Positions 36,452 through 60,171 of a DNA stretch of 64,000 nucleotides are shown here, in pieces. A program made the position numbers and the translations under genes. The stretch comes from an uncultured Spirochaetia bacterium (GTDB lineage Bacteria > Spirochaetota > Spirochaetia > CAKZLE01). The notes below the pieces were generated by a model. That model ran no database searches and was not told the origin of the DNA. It was given only the letters and a program-made list of their open reading frames with translations. Numbering within the stretch: the stretch's first letter is position 1; each line of letters begins with the position of its first letter. The DNA lies in assembly GCA_937125225.1 (NCBI GenBank), contig CAKZLE010000035.1:76705-140704 (forward strand), given 5' to 3'.

Positions 36452-37279
36452 ATGAATGAACATATAACCGATAGATCATCTAATGATAAAATAAGTAAAT
36501 CATTTTTAAGACTTCACGATGTTCTTACCAAATTGAGAGCTCCTGAAGGATGTCCATGGGATAGAAAGCAAACTCCTGAGTCCTCCTATAAGAATATTAT
36601 TGAAGAAGCCTACGAATTTATCGATGCTGTTCATAATAATGATATAGATAATTGTAAAGAGGAATTAGGAGATCTTTATTTAGTAATTACCATGATTGCG
36701 ATTATGTATGAAGAACAATCATTATTCACTATTTCTGAAATTCTTGATAATACTTCTGAAAAAATGATAAGACGACATCCTCATGTTTTTGAAAATGCAG
36801 TTGCAAATAATCCTGAAGAGGTCATAAAACTCTGGGATACTATAAAAGAAACAATAGAGGGGAAAACGACTTCACTTGAGAATCCTTACAAACATATCCC
36901 TAAATCCTTACCACCTTTAGAAAGAGCTGAAGAAATACAGAAGATTGCCAGGAAAAAAGGGTTTGATTGGCCTTCAGCTGAAGGTGCAATTGAAAAGGTA
37001 CATGAAGAGTTACAAGAACTTCATGAAGCGATTGAATTGAAGAACCATTCAAAGATTGAAGAAGAACTAGGAGACCTTATTTTTTCAGTTGTCAACATCT
37101 CCAGATTACTAAAGGTGAACCCCCATGTTTCTTTACATAAAACGAATGAGAAATTCATTAAACGGTATAATGATATGGTGATTTTATTTGATAAGGACCA
37201 TGAAAAGGAGTTCTCAGAGGCTTCGTTCGAAGAGATGGATATCTATTGGGAAAAAGCTAAAAAGTTAAACCTCACCTAG
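36452..37279 (+). CDS. mazG: Nucleoside triphosphate pyrophosphohydrolase MazG (tandem MazG domains)
   Basis: ...LRAPEGCPWDRKQTPESSYKNIIEEAYEFIDAV...EELGDLYLVI..., and a second domain with ...EELGDLIFSVVNISRLLKV.... Confidence 0.85.
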   Translation: MNEHITDRSSNDKISKSFLRLHDVLTKLRAPEGCPWDRKQTPESSYKNIIEEAYEFIDAVHNNDIDNCKEELGDLYLVITMIAIMYEEQSLFTISEILDNTSEKMIRRHPHVFENAVANNPEEVIKLWDTIKETIEGKTTSLENPYKHIPKSLPPLERAEEIQKIARKKGFDWPSAEGAIEKVHEELQELHEAIELKNHSKIEEELGDLIFSVVNISRLLKVNPHVSLHKTNEKFIKRYNDMVILFDKDHEKEFSEASFEEMDIYWEKAKKLNLT

Positions 37280-39755
37280 CCTCTTCAGTTAAGACTTTTG
37301 CCAGGTTTTCTCCTGATTTACCATAAAGTTCGATTCTTTTTACATTATATCTGCTTAAAAAATCATATTTCTTCATTTCTGGATCAATCAGTTTCAGGAT
37401 ATTCCCTACCTTACCTTTCTGTTCAAATATTGAAACAGTTGCTGAGGTTCCATCAGTTGTTAATAAGGTAACATTAGATTGTTCTTGAACAATTAATTCA
37501 GTAATCCTAAATAATTCCTTTGTATCATCATCAGAATCAATGCTGAAGGTATATGCAGATCCAGAATAAGCTGAAGAGATTGATTTATGTCCTAAACCTT
37601 TTGTATTGAATGAAATAAAATCTACTCCATCAGGTAGAGAATTATTACATAATTCTAAGATTTCATGTTTAAAAAGCTCGTTTTTATATTTATCAGGTAT
37701 TCTGAAGAGCATTACTTCTTCTTTTCCCGATACTCCCAATGGTAATGGTGAAGCAAATTCTAATCTTGGTTTTGGATTAAAACCGTGAGTGAATTCTATA
37801 GGGATTCCTGTTCTCATAAACATTCTTTCAAAGATATTCATCATATTAATATGCGAATAATAGATTGCCTTACCGTTTTTCTTATAGGTAGCAATTATAT
37901 GGATAAACTTAGGTAATTCCGCAATGTCTACTTCTGGTTTATGATCATCAACAAAAGTTTCATTAGAAGTTTCTGCATCTAGTATTTCACTCATTTTTTT
38001 GGGATTACAAACACCACAATTATGATCACATACTGGAGCACAGATAGGAGTAGGTTCAAATCTAGAGGCAAGAGCATATTCATTTTTTAAGAAACCCTTC
38101 CCTGCTCCTACCGAAATATCATCCCAGGGCAAAGGGGCATCAATAGGAGTCATATCACAACTCTCATGGAGAACATCCCAAGATGTTTCTTCTATAGCTT
38201 CTACCCAATTATTTTTATTGAAATATTCATCCCAAGCATCTAATCTTGAGCCTTTGAAATAAGCTTTCTCTATGATATCACTTACACGTTCATCACCTCT
38301 TGAAACCATTCCTTCAAGATAAGAAGTATAAGAATCATGAAAACTCACCTTTACTTGTGGAAGTCGTCTGATAAGAAGTGCTTTAATATTTTTTAAATGA
38401 TTCAATGCGAAATCAGGTTCTAATTGATTAGACCATTGGAATGGTGTATGAGGTTTCGGAACGAAAGTCCCGATATTTATATTCATACGTATCTTAGTAG
38501 CTTTATAGATTTCTGAAAGAAATCCTGCAATTGCTTCAGGTTCCCTTTCCAAATCTGTAAATGGTAGGCCAGTCATAAAGTAGAATTTGGCCAATTTCCA
38601 CCCAAGATCCTTTGCTTGTTTGATTATAGATATGATATCTTCACATAAGACCTCTTTGTTCATTGCCATCTGCCAGTTATGTTCTGGTGTTTCTATGGCA
38701 AAGGTTAAACCGCTCCTTCTCACTGTTGATACAGCCTTCAAGACTGGTAAAGTAAAAGAATTTACTTTTAGTGAAGGCAAAGAGAAAGAGATATGATTTT
38801 TTTCGTGACGTTTATTAAGGGAAGAAATCAATTTATCTAGATGTGGATAATCCCCAGTAGATAATGAAGAAAGTGTTATCTCCCTATATCCGTAGTTCTT
38901 TAAATTAAAGTCTACCTCGTCTATAATTTTAGGAATATCTTTTTGCCGATAAGGTCTGTAGAATTCCCCGGCATGACAAAACCTACAACCATTTGGACAG
39001 CCTCTCATGATTTCAATAACTCCGTGTTCCTGAACAATAGAAATATTAGGAGCAAGAAAATATTGATCTGATACTGGTTGATCCAAACCAAATCTCTGGT
39101 TAACTAATGCTACCGCTTTTGGTTTTCTTTTAGACCAGATTGATGGGTGTTCCTCTAATGATAAAAGTTTTCCCTCTCTATTTTTATTACTTTTCTTCGC
39201 TTTAACAAGTTTTTTAAGAATATCCCCTAGACCTGGTTCAGATTCAGAATCTCCAATGAATATACCATCTATCCATGCTCCAAAAGGCGCTGGATTCGTA
39301 ATTGCTGGACCTCCTGCAATCACTATTGGATGTCTTTCTGTTCTATCCTCAGTATGAAGAGGAATCAAACCTGTTTCTAATACTGCAAGTATATTGGTAG
39401 CAGCAAGTTCGTACCCTACTGTGAAGGCAAGTACATCACATTCATGTAAAGGTATTCCATATTCAAGGGTATAAAGCGGAATTTCTTTATCGTGCAGAAT
39501 TTTCTCGAAATCAGGGGCTGGACTAAAAACCAAATCACATAGTACATGAGGAATAGAATTACAAAGATCAAATAATATTCTTACAGCATTATTTGACATC
39601 CCTATTTCATATAAGTCAGGAAAACATAGTGCGATTTTCAACTGAATATCTTCATCTAGAGGTTTTTTCTTACCAAATTCTCCTCCAATATAACGTCCTG
39701 GTTTCTCGATGTTCAATAATATATTTTTTAAATCTATTTCTGGTCTAATTATCAT
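37272..39755 (-). CDS. Fused B12-binding-like/radical SAM protein with C-terminal radical-SAM-linked (DUF2344-like) domain
   Basis: CxxxCxxC radical SAM cluster motif MRGCPNGCRFCHAGEF, with a TIGR03960-like N-terminal ~600 aa and a TIGR03936-like C-terminal ~220 aa fused into one 827-aa ORF. Its 3' end overlaps mazG convergently by 8 nt. Confidence 0.7.
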   Translation of the reverse strand: MIIRPEIDLKNILLNIEKPGRYIGGEFGKKKPLDEDIQLKIALCFPDLYEIGMSNNAVRILFDLCNSIPHVLCDLVFSPAPDFEKILHDKEIPLYTLEYGIPLHECDVLAFTVGYELAATNILAVLETGLIPLHTEDRTERHPIVIAGGPAITNPAPFGAWIDGIFIGDSESEPGLGDILKKLVKAKKSNKNREGKLLSLEEHPSIWSKRKPKAVALVNQRFGLDQPVSDQYFLAPNISIVQEHGVIEIMRGCPNGCRFCHAGEFYRPYRQKDIPKIIDEVDFNLKNYGYREITLSSLSTGDYPHLDKLISSLNKRHEKNHISFSLPSLKVNSFTLPVLKAVSTVRRSGLTFAIETPEHNWQMAMNKEVLCEDIISIIKQAKDLGWKLAKFYFMTGLPFTDLEREPEAIAGFLSEIYKATKIRMNINIGTFVPKPHTPFQWSNQLEPDFALNHLKNIKALLIRRLPQVKVSFHDSYTSYLEGMVSRGDERVSDIIEKAYFKGSRLDAWDEYFNKNNWVEAIEETSWDVLHESCDMTPIDAPLPWDDISVGAGKGFLKNEYALASRFEPTPICAPVCDHNCGVCNPKKMSEILDAETSNETFVDDHKPEVDIAELPKFIHIIATYKKNGKAIYYSHINMMNIFERMFMRTGIPIEFTHGFNPKPRLEFASPLPLGVSGKEEVMLFRIPDKYKNELFKHEILELCNNSLPDGVDFISFNTKGLGHKSISSAYSGSAYTFSIDSDDDTKELFRITELIVQEQSNVTLLTTDGTSATVSIFEQKGKVGNILKLIDPEMKKYDFLSRYNVKRIELYGKSGENLAKVLTEEAR

Positions 39756-39764
39756 CTTATTCCT

Positions 39765-40592
39765 CTATGGTACAATTTTTTTCGATTTCTCTATCATTGT
39801 TTTAGACTCTATTAGATTGCCATCCTGCTCATATAGCAAAGATAGTGTTTTATAGATATTCTTAAGTAAGATAGGATCCGTGATATAGTTAGATAACTCT
39901 ATGAAAGACTGTAACGCTTCATTTGGAAATAGTTCTGTCTTGATAACATAAAGTTCGTATAATTCCTTCTCTGAAACTGCTAGATGAATAAGAAATTCTA
40001 ATTGACCAGCTGCCTCTTTATACATTCCAAGTGCAATATATTTGTTTACGAGAAAATATGCAATTCTTCTAGAGTCTAAACCAGCTTTTTGTAAGTATTC
40101 TTTTGCTATGTAAAGATCTGCTGAATTTGCTGAGGAAATTCCAAGATATACATATAAGTTTGAATTTATAAATCCATTTTCTTCTGCTATAAGAAGATTA
40201 TCTACTGCTCTATCAAAACGTCCTGTATTGAAATATGCAGCGCCTAAGAGGTAATGAATTAAAGGGATAACTTTAGTACTTTCAGGATAGAGTATTTTAA
40301 AAAGTTCTAGACTTTCAATACTGTTCCCGTACTGTTTTAAATTGAAATTACTTATTCCGTAAAGGTATAGGTAAGTCTGTTCAACTCTTTTTTTATCATT
40401 TAATTGATTATAGGAGTTAATAAAACTCTGAAAATCACCTGAATAGAATTCCTTAAAAAATTGCTCTTTCTGTTTTGAATCTTTGAATGTAGAAATAGAA
40501 ACAGCAAGGATAAGTAACACCATGATCGTTGTTATAATCATAATGAGATATGGTATTATCCTTACTGTCTTCTTTGAAAAATCATTATTCAT
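39765..40592 (-). CDS. Membrane-anchored TPR repeat protein
   Basis: Start MNNDFSKK at 40592, then a TM helix (IIPYLIMIITTIMVLLILAVSI) and TPR-like helical repeats. The ORF-track start at 40640 would run into the rnpB gene, so it is rejected. Confidence 0.5.
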   Translation of the reverse strand: MNNDFSKKTVRIIPYLIMIITTIMVLLILAVSISTFKDSKQKEQFFKEFYSGDFQSFINSYNQLNDKKRVEQTYLYLYGISNFNLKQYGNSIESLELFKILYPESTKVIPLIHYLLGAAYFNTGRFDRAVDNLLIAEENGFINSNLYVYLGISSANSADLYIAKEYLQKAGLDSRRIAYFLVNKYIALGMYKEAAGQLEFLIHLAVSEKELYELYVIKTELFPNEALQSFIELSNYITDPILLKNIYKTLSLLYEQDGNLIESKTMIEKSKKIVP

Positions 40593-40599
40593 AAATAAA

Positions 40600-40940
40600 A
40601 AATCCAGGTCTATAAGCCGGGTTCTGTTGTCGACGATCATCTATCTGCATACCTTATTGCTAAGATATTCTAGCGACCTACCCGCAGCATTAAAGCGAAC
40701 AACTATGCTGCTGTTTGATCTTGCTCCTGAAGAGGTTTACCCTGCCCTGTCTGTTACCAGACAGGCGGTGGGCCCTTACCCCACCATTTCACCCTTACCT
40801 GCAAGCAGGCGGTATATTTTCTGTGGCACTTTCTGTAGCTTCAAAAAGAAGCTCCCGGGAGTTACCCGGCATCATGTTCTATGGAGCCCGGACTTTCCTC
40901 TCTATACATAAAGTATAAAGCGATCATCTGACCTAGATTA
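40600..40940 (-). ncRNA. rnpB: RNase P RNA (bacterial type A-like)
   Basis: The minus strand carries the universally conserved P4 5' strand GAGGAAAGTCCGGGCTCCATAG and the P4 3' strand ACAGAACCCGGCTTAT. It also has the CAGGTAAGGGTGAAATGGTGGGGTAAGGGCC module and a P1 pairing of TCTAGGTC (5') with GACCTGGA (3'). The region is a GC-rich island in an AT-rich genome and ends in a U-run. Confidence 0.85.
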
Positions 40941-40950
40941 AATAATAACT

Positions 40951-41748
40951 TTAAAGATCGAAATCATCAAGATCGACGAGATCTGCTAATGCACCCTCTT
41001 CAATATCATCTGCACCAACTGCTGATCCGATAACCTCTTCTTCGATATCTTCGAAGTAAAGAATTCTACTACAGTAGGGACAGAACATGAAATCTTTTCC
41101 TTTTCTTACATCATTAACAAACTGCGCAGGAAGTGTCATATGACAACCAGTACAAACTGTATCATGAATTGGTACAATACCAACTCCTGACTTGTTTTTA
41201 ATGATCCTTTCAAACTTGAATAGAACATCACCATCGATATCTGGAACGATCTCATCTTCTTGTTCTTTTAGAATATCAAGTTCTTTATTTTTCTCGCTGA
41301 GAATAGTTTCCATCTTCTCCTGCTCAACTTTTACCTCTTCTTCCTGAAGAGTCATGAGATCTTCCTGGTCTTCAATCTGAGAAACGAGTTCTTCTTGAAT
41401 GTTCTCTTTATGAAGGATAGTCTTTCTCAACTGTTGTTCTTTCTCTGTAGCATCCTTGATTTCTTTGTCGAGTGCCTCATATTCTCGTTGAGTTGTGATG
41501 AGATCCATCTGTTTTTCATAATTCTCTCGTTCTCTCTCAGCATCATCTAGTCGTATTCTGATGCTTTTGATATCATTTTTAATCAGTTCAAGTTTTTCAT
41601 TCTTTTCAAGATAGTTCTTCTTACCACGATTAAGCAATTCGATTTTTGTGCTTAACGTCTTTGGAATTTCTTTCACTTCATCTTGAACATCATATTTCTT
41701 TGATAAAATGGTCTGTAAGGCCTGCAATTTAATAAATACTTCCTGCAT
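40951..41748 (-). CDS. Coiled-coil protein with C-terminal C4 zinc ribbon (COG1579-like; HP0958-type architecture)
   Basis: Long E/K-rich coiled coil, then CTGCHMTLPAQ...FCPYCSRILY. Confidence 0.5.
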   Translation of the reverse strand: MQEVFIKLQALQTILSKKYDVQDEVKEIPKTLSTKIELLNRGKKNYLEKNEKLELIKNDIKSIRIRLDDAERERENYEKQMDLITTQREYEALDKEIKDATEKEQQLRKTILHKENIQEELVSQIEDQEDLMTLQEEEVKVEQEKMETILSEKNKELDILKEQEDEIVPDIDGDVLFKFERIIKNKSGVGIVPIHDTVCTGCHMTLPAQFVNDVRKGKDFMFCPYCSRILYFEDIEEEVIGSAVGADDIEEGALADLVDLDDFDL

Positions 41749-41767
41749 CTATATACTCCTAGTTATA

Positions 41768-43612
41768 TTATACATAATCCTTTAATCGTCTACTTCTTTT
41801 CGGGTGTCTTAATCTTCTCAAGGCTTTAGCTTCAATTTGCCTAATTCGCTCTCTAGTGACTTCAAAGTATAAACCAACCTCTTCTAAAGTCAATGAATAG
41901 CCATCCTCTAATCCAAACCTCATCTTCAAGACTTCCTGCTCTCTTGGAGGCAGTGTTTTAAGAACATCTTGTAGTTGTTCTTGAAGTAATTTGAAAGCTG
42001 TCTGGGTCGCAGGATTCTCTACCTCTTTATCTTCTATGAAATCGCCGAGTAAAGAATCTTCTTCTTCACCTATTGGAGTCTCAAGAGAGATAGGTTCTCT
42101 TGCAACATTCTTTACTGTTTTGACTCTTTGTGGAGTCCACCCTAACCGTTCAGCAATCTCTTCATCAGTTGGTTCTCTTCCAAAAACTTGCATCAACTGT
42201 CTAGATTCTCTGACGACTTTATTGATCTGTTCTATCATATGTACGGGAACTCGAATAGTCCTAGCCTGATCAGAAATTGAACGGGTTATTGCCTGTCTGA
42301 TCCACCAAGTCGCATATGTTGAGAACTTATATCCTTTACGATATTCGAATTTCTCTACAGCTTTGATCAATCCGATATTTCCTTCTTGAACTAAGTCAAA
42401 GAAATGAAGTCCTCTATTGGTATACTTTTTAGCGATAGAGACCACAAGTCGAAGGTTGGCTTGAATCAAACGATCCTTTGCACTCTTCATCATGACTCGG
42501 CCATGCTCTATTTCTTTTGCATCATTGATGATTTCAGAAATATCATTTTCGAAATCAAATTCAATATTTTTGAGTTTTTTCTCTGTAAGTTGAATCTGTC
42601 TGATCTGTTCTTTTATAACATCAGTCGTCATCTGTAGTTTTTCTTCAAGTGCTTCTCTTTTACTCGGTATAGCAAGGGATCGTCCCATCTGTCTGAGTTC
42701 TCTAACAGAACTGACACCTAATCGTGCTTCTAACTGATCTCTTCTATTCTGGTACTCATATATATCTTTTTCTGATTGTACGAACTTATCGGTAAAATCT
42801 ATTATCTCATCCTGTTGAAGAACGAATTGAGAGAGTTTCTTCATAAGCTTATCTCTCTTCTTTCCAAGATCTTCATCCTGAATAAAACTACCACCTTCAC
42901 TTTGAATCTTTTTTTTCTGTTCAACATAATTCTTAAGTGGGGCATTAACCTCTTTGATCTGATCTTTATAGGCTTGATTGAGTCTTTTTTGTTCTGAGAA
43001 GAAATCAGCCAATTCTTTCTTTGACAGTTCAAGTTCACTCTCATCGATCTTCTGGGCAAGTTTTTGTTGAATATTAGACATACCTGTGATCATGATCCCT
43101 GATTTGAGTATGACACTTCTGATGATATTCTCACCCTCTTCCATCTTCTTTGAAAGCTCAACTTCTTGTTCAGCAGTTAAAAGGCTCTCTTTACCAATCT
43201 CTCTTAGGTAGAGTCTAATAGGATCGTCAATTGCAGCTTCACCATCACTATAGATGAGTTTCTTTGACTTATGAGATGGTTTTTTTACAGGAGCCGCAAT
43301 TATTTCTTCAACAACCTCTTCTGCCTCTACGATTTCTTCTTCATCTTCTATGATCTCAAGATCCTCATCCTCTTCGAATGCTACCTCTGTGCCAGAGTCA
43401 AAGGATCCCTGTACGGCAGGATCTACGGCAGTTTTAGATTTAATGACTTTTACACCATTTTTTTCAAGAAGTTTGACGACTTCATCCGAGTTATCAGAAT
43501 TTGCAATAGAATCTGGTAAGAACTCGTTCATCTCAGCTAAAGTGATCTGTTTCTTTTTCTTACCGAATACTAAGAGTTTCTTAACTAAAGGATCTTGTGA
43601 TAATTCTGGCAT
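41768..43612 (-). CDS. rpoD: RNA polymerase sigma factor RpoD (sigma-70)
   Basis: Regions 1.1, 1.2, 2 (...[14 protein letters not shown]...), 3 and 4 (...[31 protein letters not shown]...). Confidence 0.95.
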
Positions 43613-45381
43613 TAACTATTCCTTATACGTCCAATTTCTTCATCTATAAACTTTTTCTCATATAGAAGATCCTGCAAAATCTTTATATCAGCATGAGCAG
43701 AATTCTCTTCTACCTTTATCTGAGAAATGACAGATTTCCTGTTTATTTCCAGTTTGCTGATCTTATACCTCTTCAATATATCATCAATCACATTATCTAC
43801 ATGGATAAGATACTGATCAGAGCCGTAATTCTCAAGTATAAAAGTTCTTACTTCATCATGTTCAATTCGAAGAATAAGATTCTCGAAACTTGATTCACCC
43901 TCACGAAAAGCCTCTTCAAGTGCAGTATATATATCAATTGCCCTATAATCTTCAAAATCGGCAATCTTAACCTGTCTTCTGACATTAAGAAAATATTCAC
44001 GATTATGAATGATCACCATCATCAGATACAGTTCAATTGATAAAGAACCTGATTGCACACCAATACGCTCACGTGATTGTTGTTGACTATTACGTTTGAC
44101 TTTTTGCCTTGTTAGATCTTGCATAATTGTCTTTTCGTCAACATCAATAATCTCCGCGAGCGTTTTTATTGAACTAGATAATTTTATTTCTGATTGTATT
44201 GCTTCTAAATATGGTCTTACCTCATTAAAGACAGATAATTTTCCGTTCGGCGAAGAAATGTCATGATTTTCTTTCGCCTTGTTAATCATATACGTAAAAC
44301 TATTTATACTCTTTTTTAGAATATTTTTCAACAAGTCAATATCACTATTTTGTAATATCTCAGCAGGATCCTTATCTTCAATTGAAATAACTTCTGTATC
44401 AATGCCTAAGGGTTCAAGAATAGTGATGGTCTTTCTTGTCGCTTGGACTCCAGCATTATCAGAATCAAAAAGTAGTATTCCATTTTCCGCATATCTTTTG
44501 AGTCTTCTCCCCTGTTCAGGTGTGAAGGCCGTACCAAGTGGTGCGACACTATTCATTATTCCTGCTTCATAGAGTGCAAGAACATCAAAATATCCTTCAC
44601 AAACTATGAAGGAGTTCATCTTCTTGATAGCGGGAAGGCTCTGATGGAGGCTAAAGAGCGCTTCTCTCTTGTGATAGATATCAGTTTCAGGAGAGTTTAA
44701 ATATTTTGCATTATTGTTTTTATCTAGGGCTCTTCCACCAAAAGCGATAATATTTCCTGATTGATCTGAGATGGGAAACATGAGCCTATCTCTGAAAATT
44801 GGATAAGTAGGGTTATTCTTTGAAAAGACTCCACATTTCTTAAGGAATTCATCACTGTATTTTTTCTTTTTTAAGAATCGATAAAGCCAATTTGGATCTG
44901 CTGGAGCATAGCCTAGTTGGTAATCATCTATTGTAGTATCCGAAATTTTCCTTTCATGAAGATAAGTAAGAACTTTCTTTCCCTCATCTTTCTCTTTTAA
45001 AATGTAGTGAAAACTTGCGGCAAGTCTTTTATAGAGTTCATACATCGCCTGCTTATCAGATCTCTTTTCCTGTTGTTCTGGAGATTCCTCTTCAAGTGCG
45101 ATCCCTGCTTTCTCAGCAAGTTTCTGTACTGATTCTATAAAAGTTATATGTTCAATTTCCATAAGGAAGTTAAAAATCGATCCACCTTTCCCACAACCGA
45201 AACAATGATAAAAACCTTTATCATCATGAACGGTAAAAGAAGGAGTTTGTTCATCGTGAAAAGGACAGAGACCCCAAAGTTGGCCCCCTTTCGATTTAAG
45301 GGAGATATAATCTGAGATCACATCAGATAATGAGATTTTGTCTTTTATTTGCTCTAATATATAATCAGGAATCCTGGCCAT
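43612..45381 (-). CDS. dnaG: DNA primase DnaG
   Basis: Zinc-binding domain [35 protein letters not shown] domain ...[13 protein letters not shown].... Upstream of rpoD (macromolecular-synthesis operon order). Confidence 0.9.
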
Positions 45382-46949: not shown

Positions 46950-47750
46950 ATGAAGAAATTCTTATTATGGTTGATTCTCATCATTATAGTCGGCAGTGTC
47001 ATATTCTATATAGGTTGGACACAATACAGATTGGATCAAGATATGTATGGTGTCATATATACAAAGACCTCAGGATATTTTGAAGAACCGATAGAATCCG
47101 GACATTTTTCTTGGTCAGGGTGGAGACTAATACCTGGTAATTTAACGATAACTCAAATTCCATCTAGTAGTCGTAGCATTTCGATCAGGGCAAAAAAGAC
47201 TCTGCCTGCTGCTGATTCATATAAGATGATGGTCATTGGTGACCCGGTATTCTCATACGATGCGGATATCACAATTTCCTATTCATTAGAAAAAGGTTCT
47301 GTCGTTGCACTTGTGAGCAGTTATGGAGTTAATGAATTGAATAGTACAACGTGGTTCCTCGCTAAGGATGAGATGGTTCGTTCTATAGCTCTTGAGATAA
47401 TCACAGATTACTTTATACATAAAGATGTTTCTGCAAGTAAGGATATGATTTCTGAAGATATAAAGGGGTATCTTTCTACTCAGATAAAAACCTATTTCAC
47501 AGAACTGAATATCAATGATATATCAATGACCTTCAATTCTCTCCCTGATTTTGAGATCTATTCACAGGCCAAAAAAAGCTATGAAGAGATGGTAGAACTC
47601 AAGAATGAAACATTGGCTGATGCAATATTACAATCTCCAGAGATGATCACTGAAAATATGCTCTATATAGATAAACTGCAGAATTACGGGCAGCTTTTAT
47701 CCCAATATCCTATTCTATTAGAGTATCTAAGGATAGAACAAGCCCAGTAA
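46950..47750 (+). CDS. Hypothetical membrane-anchored protein (possibly SPFH-like)
   Basis: An N-terminal TM helix (LLWLILIIIVGSVIFYIGW), then a ~240-aa soluble domain with no confident family assignment. Confidence 0.35.
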   Translation: MKKFLLWLILIIIVGSVIFYIGWTQYRLDQDMYGVIYTKTSGYFEEPIESGHFSWSGWRLIPGNLTITQIPSSSRSISIRAKKTLPAADSYKMMVIGDPVFSYDADITISYSLEKGSVVALVSSYGVNELNSTTWFLAKDEMVRSIALEIITDYFIHKDVSASKDMISEDIKGYLSTQIKTYFTELNINDISMTFNSLPDFEIYSQAKKSYEEMVELKNETLADAILQSPEMITENMLYIDKLQNYGQLLSQYPILLEYLRIEQAQ

Positions 47751-49815: not shown

Positions 49816-49834
49816 CAGTAGTTTATTAATAATA

Positions 49835-49867
49835 AGGTTCTTCTAACTTTTAGAAGAACCTTTTTTT
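49835..49867 (+). terminator. Bidirectional intrinsic terminator
   Basis: AAGGTTCTTCTAA-CTTT-TAGAAGAACCTT followed by TTTTTTT. It lies downstream of the DUF1015 gene and overlaps the last codons of the convergent gene. Confidence 0.55.
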
Positions 49868-50289
49868 GGAATTCGGTGTGTGAGAAAAGTCAGTATGAGA
49901 AAGAACATCAATCCAATGATAGCAGCTATTGTAATCAATAAGGTATTTGAAACAGGTTCAATCTCTTCCGAAGCAATTGTATGAATGATCGTCGGAGGAG
50001 TCACATTTTTATCTTCAGCATGAGCTGGTAGATATATTATAGTCTCACCACCTGTCAGACCATATTCTTTAGCTAGATTTGAGATATATTGAGGATCTTG
50101 CAGTCTTGTATACTCTAGTTTCAATTCTGTATTCTCAGCTTTGATTTCTTGATATATAAGTTCTAGTTGTTCCATTTTTTCGATCTCTTTATCTGTGTTT
50201 ATCAACCCAAAATGACCATAAGTCGTCAGTCCAATGGCATATACTAATAAAGAGATAGCAATACTTAACAAAACATGTGGTTTATTCAT
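49843..50289 (-). CDS. FtsB/DivIC-like septum formation initiator family protein (putative)
   Basis: Short cytoplasmic N-terminus, one TM helix (VLLSIAISLLVYAIGLTTYG), a coiled coil (EIEKMEQLELIYQEIKAENTELKLEYTRLQDPQYISNLAKEYGL), then a second C-terminal TM helix. The start at 50289 is preferred over the ORF-track 50358. Confidence 0.4.
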   Translation of the reverse strand: MNKPHVLLSIAISLLVYAIGLTTYGHFGLINTDKEIEKMEQLELIYQEIKAENTELKLEYTRLQDPQYISNLAKEYGLTGGETIIYLPAHAEDKNVTPPTIIHTIASEEIEPVSNTLLITIAAIIGLMFFLILTFLTHRIPKKGSSKS

Positions 50290-50356
50290 AGCTTTATATT
50301 GTCTTTTTTTTTTATATAAATATGATATACTATAACAGAATTCTAGTGGAGTATAC

Positions 50357-50944
50357 ATGTATAAAAGTAAAAAACAGAATTATCCGGGTCTTTATGGAAA
50401 ATTCAAAAGAATAGATTCATCAAATTTTGATGATGAACAACAAAAACATAAGCGCCCAGAATATTCTAATGATGCAAATCTAGAAAATCTGGATGATCTG
50501 ATACGCACAATCAAAGAGAAGACTCAAGAGTATGCTGAGCCAATTATTACTAATACTATAACTGAACCAGTAGTTAAGAGTGATAAGAAATCTAAGGTTA
50601 AATCTGTACACAAATCTAAAAATTATGATTCAGAACTAGATCAGTTAAAGAAGAGTAGTAGTATTCTCAATACTGTTTACTCAATCAAGAATAAAGGTGA
50701 TGAAGAAGAAAATGGGGAGGATGAACTTTTCTCTAAACTGATTACAGATTCTGATTTTATCGATGATCTTGAAGAAGATATGTTAGATGTCAGTTCTACT
50801 ACTCACTTTTCTTATGACTTTCCTGAGATTGAAATAAAAGTGAATGAACTATTGGATATGCTTGATAGTCTTTCCTCTTCGGAACGTGGAGAATTGGTCA
50901 AAAAAGAATATATATCGTACCTCTTAAAAAAATTGAATAGATAA
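50357..50944 (+). CDS. Hypothetical acidic protein
   Basis: 195 aa, K/E/D-rich, no motif recognised. Confidence 0.35.
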   Translation: MYKSKKQNYPGLYGKFKRIDSSNFDDEQQKHKRPEYSNDANLENLDDLIRTIKEKTQEYAEPIITNTITEPVVKSDKKSKVKSVHKSKNYDSELDQLKKSSSILNTVYSIKNKGDEEENGEDELFSKLITDSDFIDDLEEDMLDVSSTTHFSYDFPEIEIKVNELLDMLDSLSSSERGELVKKEYISYLLKKLNR

Positions 50945-50955
50945 GGAATTATAAC

Positions 50956-52392
50956 ATGGCAAACAAGCTCAAAGATTTTTTCACTGTTATTGTTAGTGCT
51001 GTGATTATAGGAACATTAGCCTATACTGCTGTATACCTATATCAGTTTTACCGGATATATGAGGGGTTCGCAAATGTGCCCCTAGAGACTTATAAGGATC
51101 TTCTTTTTAAAATAGCACCCATATTCATTGGTGCTTTTCTCATAATGGCTTTGATTGTTTCCTCTAAAGAGAAAACTAAGGGTGTTACCAAACCTATATC
51201 AGTATCCCAAAAGCAGTTAAAAAACTCGAATTTCTATTCACTAGACCTTCCCGTAGAGGCAGAGAAAGAGGATATTAAACTAGAAGACATCGAAGAGCCC
51301 CCACGAAGAAGCGAAATCCCTGAATCTGGAGAAGAAAAAGTTTTCAGCTTCAAGACTTCAAAGGTTTTTACTGAACAACCACCCGTGTTGGAGAGGACTC
51401 CCATTATTGAGCCAGTTACAAAAACTGAAGAACCCATGACAGATGATTCTTCTTTAGATATGAGAAAGATTTTTTCAGAGGATCTCTCATCTGATGAACT
51501 TGATTTCCTTAATAGAGACACTCCTGAACCAATAACCCCAATTTTTGAACAGCCTCAAGTAGTACAACAACCTTTTGCCAATACTACCATGGGCCAACCC
51601 TGCTCAGGAAATCAAAATATTCAATATATTCCAGTTTATGCTCAACCCATGGTATACCAACAAGGCATGCCTATTTACCAAAATCCCTACTATACAAATC
51701 AACAGCTACCCCCAGGTATGATGTATTCTCAGAATCCTGATATGCAAAATCCTGAAGTAGTCACACCTCCTGTACATCAACATACAAATCCAATCCCTAA
51801 AACAGATACAGAACCGATTACTCAAATTTCTCCAGAGCCTAAAAGTAAAGAACCATTAGGCGAAAACGATTTATCAAATTCTTCAGAAAATGGGCAAATC
51901 AATAAGATGTATGTACCACCAGTTGATACACCATTCAATGAGAGAAATGATTTTTATGAAAGACTTCAGCAAGAAGTTGAATATTCGAACAAAAAGAAAT
52001 ATGAGGTCTCCCTCATTCTTCTTAATCTTGAACCTAAAAGATTTGATAATGATTTCCAGGTTTTTGACGATGCAGTAAAAAAGTTTTTTGATGAATCAGC
52101 CTTTATCTTTGAATATGTACAAGATAATACTTTTGCAATAATTTTACCTTTCTTCTCATTTTTTGAGACTCAGAAGGAATTGATAAATCTGTATGATTTT
52201 CTCAAGAAGGAATTGCTACAGAGATCTACCTCTTTCAGAGCAGGCTTCACGAGTAAGTTCAATAGATATGTTGATTCTGAGACGATCTTATATGAGACAG
52301 AGGTGGCATTCAAGAAAGCTATTCAGGATGAGGATTTCTGTATTCTTGGTTTCGAACCTGATGTCAACAAATATGAACAGTATTATACATAG
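50956..52392 (+). CDS. Membrane protein with a P/Q-rich linker and a degenerate GGDEF-like C-terminal domain
   Basis: Two N-terminal TM helices and a Pro/Gln/Tyr-rich low-complexity middle. The C-terminal ~150 aa align to a GGDEF fold: ...VSLILLNLEPKRFDNDF... matches the metal-binding D-x-D-h-F-K-x-x-N-D block, and ...AFIFEYVQDNTFAIILP... the R-Y-G-G-E-E-F block. The GG[DE]EF signature is replaced by VQDNTF. Confidence 0.5.
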   Translation: MANKLKDFFTVIVSAVIIGTLAYTAVYLYQFYRIYEGFANVPLETYKDLLFKIAPIFIGAFLIMALIVSSKEKTKGVTKPISVSQKQLKNSNFYSLDLPVEAEKEDIKLEDIEEPPRRSEIPESGEEKVFSFKTSKVFTEQPPVLERTPIIEPVTKTEEPMTDDSSLDMRKIFSEDLSSDELDFLNRDTPEPITPIFEQPQVVQQPFANTTMGQPCSGNQNIQYIPVYAQPMVYQQGMPIYQNPYYTNQQLPPGMMYSQNPDMQNPEVVTPPVHQHTNPIPKTDTEPITQISPEPKSKEPLGENDLSNSSENGQINKMYVPPVDTPFNERNDFYERLQQEVEYSNKKKYEVSLILLNLEPKRFDNDFQVFDDAVKKFFDESAFIFEYVQDNTFAIILPFFSFFETQKELINLYDFLKKELLQRSTSFRAGFTSKFNRYVDSETILYETEVAFKKAIQDEDFCILGFEPDVNKYEQYYT

Positions 52393-53309
52393 GGTATTTC
52401 AATCTTCTTGAGATCTCTACAGAGAATGGTATCAGGAAAGACCTCTTTAGCATCATCAAGTAGTTTATAGAGTTCTCTATCTGTATATCTGGGGCTGAAG
52501 TGTATCAGTCCCATTCTCTTGATGTTTCCAGCATCCTTAGCAATCTGTGCAGCCTGTAGCGCTGTAAGGTGTCGCTTCTCTTTTGCGGTATCTTCCAAAC
52601 CCTTCTCGAACATTCCCTCACATACAAGAAAATCCGCTCCAGAAACATGGCCAGCGATAGATTCAATATATTGAGTATCAGTCACATAGGAAAACTTTCT
52701 ACCAGCCCTTTTATCGCCCATAACCTCATCGGGTTTTATGGTACAACCATTATCTAGTGTGATGGAATTACCTGCTTGTAGTTTCGCCCACAGTGGACCA
52801 ACGGGAATCTTTAATTCAATAGCTTTTTCCGGGTGGAATTTTCCGGGTCTATCATGTTCAATAATGTTATAGCCATAACAGGGCTTTGTATGTTTAAGTT
52901 TAAATACCTCAACATAAAAGTCCTCTTCTTCACAGATTATACCACCCTCTTCTACTGCATGGAAAATGATCTCATAGTTGATATACATATCAAGGATCTT
53001 TCTGTTTGCCTCTATATACTTTTCCAGTTTAGCAGGTCCATAGATATGCAACGGATCCTCTCGATCAACTTGTGACGATAGCATAAGTAGTCCAGGAAGT
53101 CCTGTGACGTGATCTGCATGCATGTGGCTGATGAAGATTCGGGAAATCTTCTTCCATTTGAGGTTTAAACGTTTAAGAGCAACCTGAGTACCCTCTCCAC
53201 AATCAAAAAGCATCAATTCTCCCTCTCTTCTTATCAGAACAGAGGTAAGGAATCTATTTGGAAGCGGCATCATACCGCTTGTTCCTAAAATGTACAGTTC
53301 TAAACTCAT
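52383..53309 (-). CDS. rnz: Ribonuclease Z (tRNA 3' endonuclease)
   Basis: MBL fold, ...LYILGTSGMMP... ...LFDCGEGTQ... HxHxDH motif ISHMHADHVTG, ~305 aa. Confidence 0.85.
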   Translation of the reverse strand: MSLELYILGTSGMMPLPNRFLTSVLIRREGELMLFDCGEGTQVALKRLNLKWKKISRIFISHMHADHVTGLPGLLMLSSQVDREDPLHIYGPAKLEKYIEANRKILDMYINYEIIFHAVEEGGIICEEEDFYVEVFKLKHTKPCYGYNIIEHDRPGKFHPEKAIELKIPVGPLWAKLQAGNSITLDNGCTIKPDEVMGDKRAGRKFSYVTDTQYIESIAGHVSGADFLVCEGMFEKGLEDTAKEKRHLTALQAAQIAKDAGNIKRMGLIHFSPRYTDRELYKLLDDAKEVFPDTILCRDLKKIEIPYV

Positions 53310-55839: not shown

Positions 55840-57070
55840 ATCTCATGATCTCCAATGGTGGTTTACGAATCAATACTCTTATTGCAGAATATATAGATAA
55901 TAAAAAGATGATCAAGACAATCACCGCTAGAATAACAAGTTCTTTTCTATAGAGAACAATAGGAAGTTCCTGTATGAAGATAGTTATATTTTTCTGAAGG
56001 AGAAATGAGGCAACCTGTTCGATAAGAATAATGATTTCATTGATATGATTGGTACAAAGAAGCCCAAAGATCGTACCAAAGAATATTCCTATAAGAGACA
56101 GAACAAACCCCTGAACCAAGAAGATCCCATAGATTTCAGAGGTTGATGAACCAAGGGATCTTAAAAGTGCTATCTCATCTTTTTTATGAAAAACATATTT
56201 TTCAAAGGATGCCTTAGAATTCATTATAACAACTAGGAAAATGAGAGAAAGCAATACCATCATCCCATACTTCTCTAACATCAACGCAGAATATAGTCCG
56301 TAATTTGCCTGTTTCCAATCTGTGACACTCTTAACACCTTCAAGTTCTAAGAGGTCATCTTGTAGTTTGGATATCGAATTCAATGATGCCTTAATACCTA
56401 TAGAGGGTTGTTGATTGGGAAGGACTTTGCTCAAGGTCTCCTCATTTATAAATATCATCTGAGTATTTATTTCAGAAAAATTACTTGAGAATATTGATGA
56501 AACGGTATTTGAAAAGGTAAGTGGTACATGTTTGACAATCTTTCCTACACCCATCAGAGTGATCGAGATCTCAGAGTCTATTGGAGCCCGAAAAATCCTA
56601 CTCATATACTCACTGATCAAAATCTCTTGTGGGTCAAGTCTAGTCGGTTCCTCTAGAATATTTAGATGTTCTATAAATCCCGTATCTGTGGAAAATGCAG
56701 TATTTTCAATGCCCCTTAGGAGTACCGGATAATATTGATCGTTTCGGTATTCGATAAGGGCATTGGTGTCTAGGAACCTGACAGCAGATTCTACCGAAGA
56801 AAACTGCCTGATACGGTCCTGAACCTGATATATATCAGCATCTTCGCTTAACTCAACCTGGAGATGATAGGATTCAATCTCTCTTAGATCAGATAGGTAA
56901 CCAGATTGAAGACCATTCATGATACCAATTACTATAAAAATCGCTATAAACCCGATAGTAATACCTAATACGGTGAATAAAGCGGAGGTATATCGTTTAT
57001 TCCTCCTACTGAAAAGGAACTTCTTAGCAATATAGATAGACGATCTCAAGGATCGAAAACTATTAATCAT
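55832..57070 (-). CDS. LolC/LolE-family (FtsX-like) ABC transporter permease
   Basis: Same architecture as the other permease, so two permeases flank the ATPase as in lolCDE. Confidence 0.7.
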   Translation of the reverse strand: MINSFRSLRSSIYIAKKFLFSRRNKRYTSALFTVLGITIGFIAIFIVIGIMNGLQSGYLSDLREIESYHLQVELSEDADIYQVQDRIRQFSSVESAVRFLDTNALIEYRNDQYYPVLLRGIENTAFSTDTGFIEHLNILEEPTRLDPQEILISEYMSRIFRAPIDSEISITLMGVGKIVKHVPLTFSNTVSSIFSSNFSEINTQMIFINEETLSKVLPNQQPSIGIKASLNSISKLQDDLLELEGVKSVTDWKQANYGLYSALMLEKYGMMVLLSLIFLVVIMNSKASFEKYVFHKKDEIALLRSLGSSTSEIYGIFLVQGFVLSLIGIFFGTIFGLLCTNHINEIIILIEQVASFLLQKNITIFIQELPIVLYRKELVILAVIVLIIFLLSIYSAIRVLIRKPPLEIMRYE

Positions 57071-58103
57071 TTATCACCTCTATAATCTCATTATCAGATG
57101 AATAGATGATGGTCGCATAGTATATACCGTCAAGATAAACCTTTTCTTTGCGACCATCCTCTTCATAAGTTACTTCTTTATGGAGAAGACCATTATTCAT
57201 GATTCGAATGGTTCTTTGATCAAATTCATTTAAACTGTAGGTATATTTCATGATACCTTCTTCCGTTTGAATTTGTTTTTCATATAATACACCATTTTCA
57301 TCATAGGAGTTAATAAGATGATAGTCTTCAGAAGAGTTCAAAGTTGAATTGAAAACTTCTTCCAGGAGTTTCCCAGATTTTACACTGCTTATTGTTTTCA
57401 ATTGAGTTTTGTAGGTATGATCTACTAAAATCTCGATGTTTGTATCATCTGAAGATTCGAGTATTCTCTCATTTTCAAGAATGCCACTTCTGTAGGTTAA
57501 GGACGTCTGTTTACCATCTTTAATGAGGTTTACCTTGAAAATATCGTTGCTACCGATAGCAAAAGTATTCTGTTCTATTGAAAAGATTAACGTATGATCA
57601 AGTGATTGTTTATGATCAAGGTCTTCTTGATAGACCATAAGTCCTTCAAGACGTCCTTGTGCATTAACAAAGAAAAATGATTTCTTAATAATACCATCTG
57701 ACTCTCTTACGATAGAATAGAGTTGCCCTTTAGAATCATAAAGATAAGTCTCATTCTGATAACTCCCATCAACAAGTTGGCTCATAGTAGAGATTTGATT
57801 ATTTATATGATGCGTCTCAATGAGAAGGTTCCCCTCTCCATCTTTACGATCAATATAGGTATGTACGCCCTCGTTTACTCTTTGTTCAATCCACAAGAGT
57901 TGATTATCGAAGTAAAGGCTTTTTCTTAAAGTATTATTTTCATCAATCTTAACATAATATCCTGATGGGAAAGGAGGGGCTCCCTCTAATTCAAAAAGTT
58001 TTTGCCCTATGGTATTTGACGAATAAAAGTGGACCTCTACAGCATGAATACTTAACGCGATACAAATATACAGTATTATGAGTATTGGCCACTTTCTTAT
58101 CAT
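57063..58103 (-). CDS. Secreted MORN/YwqK-like repeat protein
   Basis: Signal peptide MIRKWPILIILYICIALSIHA, then repeated Y-x-(D/E)-x-x-G-x-L...G...Y units (YLYDSKGQLYSIV, VNAQGRLEGLMVY, YDENGVLYEKQ, YEEDGRKEKVYLDG). Confidence 0.4.
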   Translation of the reverse strand: MIRKWPILIILYICIALSIHAVEVHFYSSNTIGQKLFELEGAPPFPSGYYVKIDENNTLRKSLYFDNQLLWIEQRVNEGVHTYIDRKDGEGNLLIETHHINNQISTMSQLVDGSYQNETYLYDSKGQLYSIVRESDGIIKKSFFFVNAQGRLEGLMVYQEDLDHKQSLDHTLIFSIEQNTFAIGSNDIFKVNLIKDGKQTSLTYRSGILENERILESSDDTNIEILVDHTYKTQLKTISSVKSGKLLEEVFNSTLNSSEDYHLINSYDENGVLYEKQIQTEEGIMKYTYSLNEFDQRTIRIMNNGLLHKEVTYEEDGRKEKVYLDGIYYATIIYSSDNEIIEVIND

Positions 58104-58995: not shown

Positions 58996-60171
58996 TTAAT
59001 AGATCCTATGGTAGTAATCCAAAAGATCGATGATAGAACGAATACCTAGATAAACCGTGGTGGTATTACCAGCAAGCTGTAAGGTCTTCCAGTATCCCTG
59101 ATTGGTAGTATCATACATGAATTTGGAAAAAATTGATATAGGAAGAGTGAGAATCACAGTCCCTAGAGAGTCATAGAAACTCCTCTTTCCTATTGCTATT
59201 TGTTCCTTGAAATCAAGCCAATATGGTCGGAGGTAGATGACCTCCTGAAGGGATGATTCAGACAAGGATTTTCTGAATAATTCAAATCCATCTAAGTCCA
59301 TTTCAATAATATCTGAATATTGGCGATCATACTGATTGGAAAGAATAAAGGGGGTCTCTCCAACATTCTGTGCATTTATCGATAATGTGGCACCTAATGG
59401 CATCGAGGAAATATAGTGCTGCTCTCCATTCAATCCATCTTGTTCTATTTCAATCTCCTGATAATAATCTAGTACAGCAATATTCCTCTTTTCAAGCAAC
59501 ACATCTTCAAGATAGATCGAAACAGCATAAACCCCTTTGGGAAGTACATTGAATATCTCATGAGAGGGTGTGGTGATAACGGTATTATTCAGTTTTAAAG
59601 TTATCTGATGTTTATGGTCATAATCTATATGAAGGATTCCTGTCTCGATATCAGTGAGATCTTCGACTACAGCCTTAAACATCTTGGAAAGTTCATCAAA
59701 TAGATGATTTTTCGTTATAATATTTGAATAGAGTGTATTTCTCGTGAGATCTCGATCTACTTTGATAAGTTCAAAAATAAGAAGATCTTCTATATGATTG
59801 AAACGTCCGTAGACCATCGTATCTAAATTATCTTTATTAAGATAATAGGAAGCAGTTATGTCATTTTCTAAGGTGAAGATCGTTGAATTATCAAAACTTT
59901 TTCCCTCAGAATAATAAGAGACAATACTCGAGGAAGTGAATTCTGTTTGGAACAAAGAGATGAATTCATTTGAGGTAAAAAGAGCTGAAATATTATCATA
60001 TAGTTCAGAATAAACAGAATCAATGATATATTGCTGTTCACCCTCGACACTGATGCTTTCATGTAGTTCTATAGGGAATAGTCCAACATTCAATATTTCA
60101 TCTACTGCAAAGAGACCTGAGGAGAGAGTACAGAACAGGCCTATTGTTAACAGGATTCTTAATCGCTTGAT
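58996..60171 (-). CDS. Hypothetical secreted protein; its signal peptide is only reachable from a non-canonical (ATC) start
   Basis: The ORF track starts at the TTG at 60093 (MNVGLF...). The same frame stays open upstream to 60195 and encodes KRLRILLTIGLFCTLSSGLFA|VDE, a canonical signal peptide. That stretch has no ATG/GTG/TTG; the candidate start is ATC at 60171, with GGAG 6 nt upstream. Confidence 0.45.
   Translation of the reverse strand: MKRLRILLTIGLFCTLSSGLFAVDEILNVGLFPIELHESISVEGEQQYIIDSVYSELYDNISALFTSNEFISLFQTEFTSSSIVSYYSEGKSFDNSTIFTLENDITASYYLNKDNLDTMVYGRFNHIEDLLIFELIKVDRDLTRNTLYSNIITKNHLFDELSKMFKAVVEDLTDIETGILHIDYDHKHQITLKLNNTVITTPSHEIFNVLPKGVYAVSIYLEDVLLEKRNIAVLDYYQEIEIEQDGLNGEQHYISSMPLGATLSINAQNVGETPFILSNQYDRQYSDIIEMDLDGFELFRKSLSESSLQEVIYLRPYWLDFKEQIAIGKRSFYDSLGTVILTLPISIFSKFMYDTTNQGYWKTLQLAGNTTTVYLGIRSIIDLLDYYHRIY

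Follow-up and report, generated by a model that had tools for sequence, protein, structure and literature searches.

Within a 64,000-nucleotide stretch of DNA from an uncultured Spirochaetia bacterium (contig CAKZLE010000035.1; hereafter the window), a gene that we call gene B encodes a membrane-tethered protein whose C-terminal domain has the diguanylate cyclase-type fold, by homology and not by convergence. The domain is very probably a pseudo-GGDEF domain and not a cyclase, because its sequence retains none of the signature, the metal and phosphate ligands, the substrate helix or the I-site. This classification of gene B is solid, and the family to which it belongs is uncharacterised. Among bacterial pseudoenzymes, degenerate GGDEF domains form a recognised class and, to our knowledge, nearly all of those that are understood keep either the I-site, as receptors of cyclic di-GMP (c-di-GMP), or the GTP site. 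The family described here keeps neither, and the form of it represented by gene B is invisible to Pfam. In both spirochaete lineages examined, among them cultivable relatives in Treponema and Gracilinema, it occupies a conserved housekeeping locus, and it lends itself well to the question of what role is left to a palm domain without nucleotide chemistry.

Fold and nucleotide sites of the C-terminal domain

The modelled structure of the domain places it among GGDEF domains. An AlphaFold model of aa 326-478 is confident (predicted local distance difference test score, pLDDT, 87.3; predicted TM-score, pTM, 0.84), and its elements run α0-β1-α-β2-β3-α-β4-α-β5, a five-stranded palm fold that can be superposed on solved GGDEF domains. 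Searched against PDB with Foldseek, the model returns 50 matches at E≤1e-3, nearly all of them GGDEF domains. The top match is the degenerate domain of FimX (PDB 3hva; E 2.9e-6, TM-score 0.72) and the second the GGDEF domain of YfiN; PelD and LapD are also among the structural neighbours. Modelling and superposition had both been put forward as checks in an earlier, sequence-only reading of the stretch, and GGDEF domains dominate the outcome.

Linking gene B to GGDEF domains by sequence requires distant family members, because profiles restricted to its own subfamily are not significant. Scans of the protein against Pfam and NCBIfam gave nothing relevant, and the Pfam GGDEF model (PF00990), a comparison that the sequence-only reading had also proposed, does not match at E≤10. 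A profile of eight orthologues found no GGDEF chain among PDB sequences at E≤10; its hit to sodium-channel β2 (E 0.4) was rejected as a chance match. With hhalign, the subfamily was not significant against a single PleD sequence, and a 10-sequence subfamily profile reached 0.5% (E 0.11) against a 3-sequence GGDEF profile, colinear over 124 columns. Using a 37-sequence profile that spans the family and has gene B as its first row, hmmsearch against PDB retrieves DosC (2.5e-9), GcbC (8e-9), DgcR (6e-8), WspR (1e-4) and PleD (2e-4). The same profile aligns by hhalign with a canonical GGDEF mini-profile, composed of DosC and GcbC segments from the PDB search and a PleD sequence, at 98.4% (E 5.8e-15, 141 columns). 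Three intermediates exceed the Pfam GGDEF cut-off of 23.8 (P0023, 35.1 bits; P0045, 28.9; P0030, 26.5) and also match the subfamily profile of gene B (E 1e-14 to 5e-9). It is because of these Pfam-positive intermediates and the family-wide profile matches that we read the resemblance as homology. The block-by-block correspondence to the GGDEF fold described from the sequence alone is therefore reproduced by profile-profile alignment, AlphaFold and Foldseek.

Lost sites were mapped onto PleD, with the residue numbers and roles of the published PleD structures, and were followed through 153 family representatives that served as the sample for all motif, tail and transmembrane (TM) counts. In profile-profile alignment, LNLEPKR aligns with IDVDKFK, and EYVQD(N)TFAIILP with RYGGD-EFIIVLT. 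On this basis the metal ligand D327 corresponds to N357 of gene B, and the K332/N335 segment of the α1 substrate helix falls in a 9-residue deletion that removes the FKxxNDxxGH segment, so that the substrate-binding α1/α2 residues K332, N335 and D344 are not retained; the gene B model has a single helix between β1 and β2. Immediately before the signature, R366 is replaced by E386, a Glu in 92 of the 153 representatives. The signature itself, G368-G-E-E-F372, reads V388-Q-D-(N)-T-F393 with a one-residue insertion, the phosphate ligands K442 and R446 become I456 and D460, and the I-site R359-x-x-D362 becomes D379-E-S-A382. The sole RxxD string is R437-Y-V-D440, which lies in the β4-α4 loop, off the I-site position.

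These losses extend through the family. The counterpart of PleD E370, the metal-binding Glu of the signature, is D390 in gene B and S, K, E or T in its orthologues, and even close orthologues differ from one another in the signature loop (VQD, VQS, SKK, PYK, THE, TTT and others). GG[DE]EF occurs in 0 of the 153 representatives and G[GS][DE]E[FYL] nowhere in the domain; the β1 metal-Asp column is not conserved across the sample, and no conserved acidic pair is available in the family domain for metal binding. The earlier conclusion that a signature reading VQDNTF cannot belong to a diguanylate cyclase agrees with the missing signature, metal, substrate, phosphate and I-site residues. Two of its details need qualifying: the metal/substrate block aligns as it had been described and in addition carries the α1 deletion beyond its substitutions, and the stated lack of an RxxD I-site holds, with one literal RxxD string lying elsewhere.

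Protein layout, family and constraint

Gene B begins with ATG, preceded by a Shine-Dalgarno-like AAGGA about 8 nt upstream, and an identical protein is already recorded in an ENA metagenome contig and at NCBI. Both hydropathy (TM segments at aa 5-23 and 50-68) and a full-length AlphaFold model (helices at aa 2-35 and 43-72, pLDDT 67-80) agree with the two TM helices first proposed; the loop between them measures 7-26 aa, according to method. Y23, P42, P55 and F57 of this hairpin are invariant among orthologues. Both termini are predicted to be cytoplasmic (N-in/C-in), because the basic stretch KEKTKGVTK follows the second helix (positive-inside rule). The linker that comes next has pLDDT <50 at aa 73-170 and 189-327. 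It is acidic to about aa 194, with abundant Glu, Ser and Lys, and is P/Q-rich only at aa 195-290 (P 18%, Q 18%), so that, of the low-complexity spacer of about 230 aa formerly described as rich in P, Q and Y, only this part fits a P/Q-rich description; the first part is acidic. Its sole segment modelled as helical is aa 179-188 (pLDDT ~60), and E181 and D183 of this linker helix are invariant in eight orthologues. The domain is well modelled at aa 329-466 in the full-length run and has a net charge of -10; the tail at aa 470-478 has pLDDT <50. A terminator-like hairpin (52001-52016, both strands) lies within the gene.

When 1.84 billion cluster representatives were searched exhaustively with the subfamily profile (HMMER), at least 325 matched at E≤1e-3, 28 of them at E≤1e-10. 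Two further profile searches of the large database returned two proteins each, its word-index prefilter evidently losing the family. Among the 153 representatives the domain is always C-terminal, with 0-16 residues after the match (mostly ≤9), and 130 have at least two predicted TM helices. Two architectures occur. The hairpin type (37 representatives, including gene B) has a loop of ~7-30 aa, typically ~20, between the TM helices and an ILPF motif; its linkers range from 7 to 269 aa and shrink to 7-22 aa in some relatives, and the P/Q segment is common only to gene B and its closest orthologue, which removes the P/Q spacer as a defining feature. The big-loop type (90 representatives) has a 110-137-aa periplasmic segment between the TM helices and an ILPN motif. 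The family as a whole is delimited by the motifs F-[EDQ]-[YF]...ILP[FN], G-x-[ST]-S-[RK]-x-x-R, E-A-x-x-[AS]-[LF]-x-K-A and G-[FY]-x-x-D-x-x-K-Y.

Every named member is from Spirochaetia, namely Spirochaetia and Spirochaetales metagenome-assembled genomes, Termitinemataceae, Breznakiellaceae, Treponema sp. J25 and Gracilinema caldarium, a breadth drawn from a few named cluster members; a contig scan gave three close loci. Two big-loop members already carry NCBI labels, 'diguanylate cyclase' (WP_132781111.1, Treponema sp. J25; P0180) and 'GGDEF domain-containing protein' (WP_304224873.1, Gracilinema caldarium). The former name is unsupported because the signature reads EWGKEGF, without GG[DE]EF, and recognising the family corrects 'diguanylate cyclase' annotations that inflate census counts of c-di-GMP proteins in spirochaetes. 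The earlier remark that no family with this architecture had been described thus stands in so far as no Pfam or NCBIfam model matches, and falls short for these distant relatives. Literature on degenerate or inactive GGDEF domains and on GGDEF proteins in Treponema yielded nothing on the family. One 44-aa fragment labelled 'Crassvirales sp.' (P0184) shares a 90% cluster with a hairpin-type member (P0031) and is probably mis-binned.

Purifying selection on the domain is strong, and no other part of the protein is as tightly constrained. Compared with the closest orthologue, the domain has a nonsynonymous divergence (dN) of 0.106, where the TM hairpin reaches 0.59 and the linker 0.66, with synonymous sites saturated (proportion of synonymous differences, pS, >0.84). 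An alignment of the domain in eight orthologues has 58 invariant columns and a mean column identity of 74%. Across the 153 representatives, G430 is kept in 153, R437 and E447 in 152 each, E340 in 147 and [RK] at position 434 in 135; [ST]432-S433-[RK]434 and F/Y466 are also among the most conserved positions, all of them placed on the domain by alignment only. Three marks are specific to the family: G-x-[ST]-S-[RK]-x-x-R after β4, a Glu in α4 and a C-terminal GFxxDxxKY tail. In the eight closest orthologues the tail residues E467, P468, D469, N471, K472, Y473, Q475, Y476 and Y477 are invariant, and in the family-wide tail pattern, GFxxDxxKYxxY, D469 is kept in 125 of 152, K472 in 112 of 144 and Y473 in 113 of 138. 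Gene B has all the family motifs (FEY...ILPF, G430-F-T-S-K-F-N-R437, E447...K454-A455 and G465-F-E-P-D-V-N-K-Y473).

Compared with active diguanylate cyclases (PleD, DosC, GcbC, DgcR and WspR; PF00990), gene B has a homologous fold and colinear sequence blocks. Unlike them, it has lost GG[DE]EF along with the metal ligands, the residues that bind guanine and phosphate, and the RxxD I-site; it also has the 9-residue deletion after β1 and gives no Pfam match. The FimX GGDEF domain sits in a REC-PAS-GGDEF-EAL protein, and it is the EAL domain of FimX that binds c-di-GMP. Relative to the degenerate GGDEF domains of FimX, LapD and DosP, to which identity is 13-14%, the dead domain of gene B is the only globular cytoplasmic domain of its protein, lacks the α1 helix and has the family-specific C-terminal tail. 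PelD and YdaK are membrane proteins, and they and PopA resemble gene B in using a dead GGDEF domain in a non-catalytic role; they differ from it as I-site receptors, gene B having no RxxD five residues upstream of the signature. YfiN/TpbB shares with the big-loop relatives the layout TM-periplasmic-TM-cytoplasmic GGDEF. The family, however, has a disordered linker in place of a HAMP domain or signalling helix, which makes rigid transmembrane signalling to the domain implausible, and in gene B the periplasmic domain is shrunk to the short loop between the helices. WP_304224873.1 and WP_132781111.1 belong to the same family (P0036/P0037 clusters; E ~1e-9 with the subfamily profile), share the dead signature and the GFxxDxxKY tail and, in Treponema sp. 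J25, lie near rnz. They differ from gene B in their periplasmic loop of ~120 aa, ILPN instead of ILPF, the absence of gene A (the gene directly upstream of gene B) and the presence upstream of Memo and two MptE-like/Maf genes, and are ~25% identical to it in the domain. The lack of both A-site and I-site, the lost α1 and a loop and tail of its own set the family apart from characterised dead GGDEF domains.

Candidate functions

The reading that we favour, and to which we would give about an even chance of being right, is that gene B encodes a nucleotide-independent, membrane-tethered adaptor. The TM hairpin would anchor the protein in the inner membrane with both termini in the cytoplasm, and the protein would neither make nor sense c-di-GMP at the classical sites. 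It would act as a membrane-tethered protein-binding module, either adaptor or scaffold, whose dead palm domain and C-terminal tail bring at least one cytoplasmic partner to the membrane. In the lineage of gene B the first candidate partner would be the acidic product of gene A; the acidic helix conserved in the linker may be a competitor for the partner-binding interface or an extension of it. Candidate processes are division (from the DivIC neighbour), the envelope (from the LolCDE neighbour) and motility (from the Maf/MptE-like neighbours of Treponema relatives).

Several observations argue for an adaptor. Neither nucleotide site survives, the conserved unstructured KY peptide and the acidic linker helix (aa 176-186) resemble docking elements, and a tightly coupled gene A accompanies the hairpin form. 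A tail that is conserved and yet modelled with low confidence fits a peptide whose folding depends on a partner. As a disordered linker of unconstrained length cannot mechanically relay a transmembrane signal, the hairpin would mainly position the domain at the membrane.

Other observations weigh against an adaptor, or against part of it. The partners named above are candidates, synteny kept among fairly close relatives is a weak guide to function, and gene A, which neither the big-loop subfamily nor one of the hairpin-type loci (L018) has, cannot be a universal partner. The invariant Ser-Ser-Arg/Lys-x-x-Arg loop could form a new phosphate or nucleotide pocket, which would make the protein a sensor and not a pure adaptor. 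R437, E447 and E340, invariant as they are, may have no more than a structural role, and conserved Y23, P42, P55 and F57 hint that the TM part does more than anchor.

The main rival is a non-canonical receptor, which we find doubtful. Here the dead domain would have a new site, made up of the G-x-S-S-[RK]-x-x-R loop (K434, R437), R423/R428 and the KY tail, for a phosphorylated ligand such as c-di-GMP, (p)ppGpp or GTP, and binding would alter membrane-proximal interactions. The near-invariance of R437 and the frequency of [RK]434 fit such a site, as does the position of the loop after β4, which from the PleD structure should lie near the phosphate site of active GGDEF domains. Many degenerate GGDEF domains are receptors, with FimX, PelD and LapD among the structural neighbours of gene B, and PleD structures with ppGpp and pppGpp (9g85, 9g86) are listed among the Foldseek matches. 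Set against this, all residues known to contact GTP or I-site c-di-GMP are substituted or deleted, the canonical phosphate positions being Ile and Asp and R366 being charge-reversed to Glu in most representatives; the domain is net acidic, and no known c-di-GMP-binding motif is found at a known position. A further reading, which we regard as rather unlikely, is that of a vertically inherited pseudo-GGDEF protein, so far found only in spirochaetes and once per locus examined, whose new surface, the SS[R/K]xxR loop with the KY peptide, would bind a ligand such as (p)ppGpp or organise a core process (division, envelope or periplasmic-flagella modification), with the gene A product joining as a dedicated, disordered partner in the hairpin lineage. 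Were this true, it would give a housekeeping role to a domain otherwise known from signalling.

A ZipA-like division tether, a special case of the adaptor in which a divisome or cytoskeletal component is held at the membrane, is improbable. Gene B and ZipA are alike in layout only (membrane anchor, charged region, P/Q-rich linker and an α/β C-terminal domain of ~140 aa), and the divergent DivIC-like neighbour is conserved in hairpin-type loci. However, the comparison fails on the fold, as no fold or sequence relationship to ZipA was detected, ZipA has one TM helix, and the P/Q linker is not conserved in the family, being restricted to gene B and its closest orthologue where relatives have linkers as short as 7-22 aa. 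The big-loop relatives have no DivIC neighbour, and adjacency says little where the whole region is syntenic housekeeping DNA (dnaG, rpoD, ftsY, lolCDE, prfB).

That the gene is a decaying remnant, a former membrane diguanylate cyclase drifting functionless towards loss, is very hard to credit. The loss of all catalytic features and the variable low-complexity linker would suit it, but the dN of the domain is about six-fold below that of the rest of the protein with synonymous divergence (dS) saturated, the 58 invariant columns hold across eight orthologues, the cluster representatives (at least 325) have intact open reading frames (ORFs) and the locus is conserved across deep spirochaete lineages; the term 'remnant' used of the domain earlier does not fit these data. 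Finally, an active diguanylate or other nucleotidyl cyclase using alternative catalytic residues, for which the palm fold and the NCBI name of one relative could be cited, is effectively refuted by sequence, given the lack of a conserved acidic pair for metal, a signature loop that varies among close orthologues, the deleted substrate helix, the absence of GG[DE]EF from all 153 representatives and the EWGKEGF signature of P0180. R437, the KY tail, the linker helix and gene A give motifs that could be tested in a spirochaete open to genetics, should one carry the family.

The locus and neighbouring genes

Table 1. Features of gene B and its immediate neighbours in the window (coordinates are window positions).
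Feature	Position	Strand	Basis
DivIC/FtsB-like gene, divergent	49843..50358	-	PF04977, 34.2 bits
Promoter-like site TTGTCT-16-TATGAT, candidate promoter of the A-B pair	50299..50326	+	consensus match only
Gene A, 195-aa acidic protein	50357..50944	+	ORF list, orthologue alignment
Gene B, membrane-tethered pseudo-GGDEF protein (probable), 478 aa	50956..52392	+	ORF list, orthologues, AlphaFold model
TM hairpin, aa 1-72	50956..51171	+	hydropathy, AlphaFold (AF2) helices, invariant columns
Linker, predicted disordered and cytoplasmic, aa 73-327 (~255 residues)	51172..51936	+	pLDDT, composition
Acidic short helix in linker, DLSSDELDFLN, aa 176-186, candidate docking motif	51481..51513	+	conservation, model
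GGDEF-derived palm domain, predicted catalytically dead, aa 328-466	51937..52353	+	
EYVQDNTF, aa 386-393, degenerate RxGG[DE]EF counterpart with one-residue insertion	52111..52134	+	alignment
C-terminal tail, aa 467-478, EPDVNKYEQYYT, and stop codon; candidate partner-binding peptide	52354..52392	+	conservation, model
rnz (RNase Z), convergent with gene B	52383..53309	-	NF000801, 374 bits

Gene A lies between the DivIC-like gene and gene B and ends 11 nt before the latter (Table 1). The sequence-only reading had set gene B between an FtsB-like gene and rnz; both of those genes are present, and it had passed over gene A. The gene A protein is likely to be disordered, to judge from its composition, and has no relative in Pfam, NCBIfam or PDB. 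Its motifs, from four orthologues, are an invariant N-terminal MYKSKKxNYPGLYGxFKxIDxSN (23 aa), ENLExLDxLIxxIKxK and DxDFIDDLEEDLL. A homologue stands directly upstream of the gene B orthologue in all six distinct hairpin-type loci searched (window/L001, L002/L003/L006, L004, L005, L009/L010 and L013) and in none of four big-loop loci. Those that precede distant hairpin-type genes (L009, L010, L013) are shorter and still recognisable. Of two further loci, L017 has a 224-aa ORF in the gene A position, and in L018, a hairpin-type locus, no gene is called there. In five loci the gene A stop and gene B start are 1-11 nt apart or overlap. No promoter-like site was found between the two genes, and the region holding the candidate promoter upstream of gene A has fewer such sites than its shuffles.

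On the other side, gene B and the convergent rnz overlap by 10 nt (52383-52392), as had been noted from the sequence; it follows that their transcripts overlap or that terminators sit inside the opposite gene. A terminator-like hairpin is found at 52490-52513 (+), within rnz. The gene is adjacent in all hairpin-type loci, with overlaps of 4-13 nt in five (L002, L004, L005, L009, L013) and gaps of 20-39 nt in L017 and L018, and lies ~4 kb downstream in two big-loop loci. We treat rnz as a positional marker of the locus and not as a demonstrated functional partner.

In hairpin-type loci, as far as relatives at E 2e-7, the order is dnaG ... CM_1, TPK, DUF1015, DivIC-like (-), gene A (+) where present, gene B (+) and rnz (-), followed beyond rnz by lolCDE-like genes and ftsY, in some cases with a DEDDh exonuclease gene in between. 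In the big-loop loci of Treponema sp. J25 and a JGI contig, gene B follows two MptE-like/Maf genes and a divergent Memo gene, and four ABC-transporter genes separate it from the convergent rnz. A host-associated Treponema-like contig (L007) has two MptE-like genes and then gene B with a stop/start overlap (ATGA), adjoined by a TP0453-family gene and ileS. The DivIC neighbour is absent from the big-loop loci examined. No second pseudo-GGDEF copy was found in the window or in any orthologous locus examined. The rnz link shared by both architectures suggests positional orthology and vertical descent of the family within Spirochaetia; the family behaves as a vertically inherited core gene near rnz and not as a mobile signalling module.

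In the Treponema-type loci (L016, 2962-8236; L014, 1035-6230; L007, 3024-7320) the pseudo-GGDEF gene comes after two MptE-like genes, one of which matches Maf_flag10_N, as in flagellin-glycosylation accessory factors, and a Memo-family gene is usual. These neighbours may link the big-loop subfamily to motility.

FtsB and DivIC normally have a single N-terminal TM helix. The DivIC/FtsB-like protein of the window has another TM helix at its C-terminal end, with a basic tail (…LLITIAAIIGLMFFLILTFLTHRIPKKGSSKS) after it, and this second helix is also present in the orthologues of L004, L005, L009 and L013. The gene is called as 148 aa in the source contig, and translation probably begins at the internal ATG that corresponds to this length. 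Between it and the convergent DUF1015 gene, a perfectly palindromic hairpin of 13 bp flanked on either side by T-runs (49834-49862) is likely to be a bidirectional terminator.

Among the 18 window ORFs scanned, no other c-di-GMP-related gene turned up. The wider window at 37272-45381 holds housekeeping genes, with rpoD and dnaG as a macromolecular-synthesis-operon-like pair, and radical-SAM/DUF2344, MazG, prfB, ftsY and lolCDE-like genes. Three ORFs gave no Pfam match: 46950-47750 (+, 266 aa), 57063-58103 (-, 346 aa) and 58996-60093 (-, 365 aa). For the first two, related spirochaete loci have unannotated counterparts of comparable length in the same places, between CM_1 and TPK and between lolCDE and ftsY, respectively.

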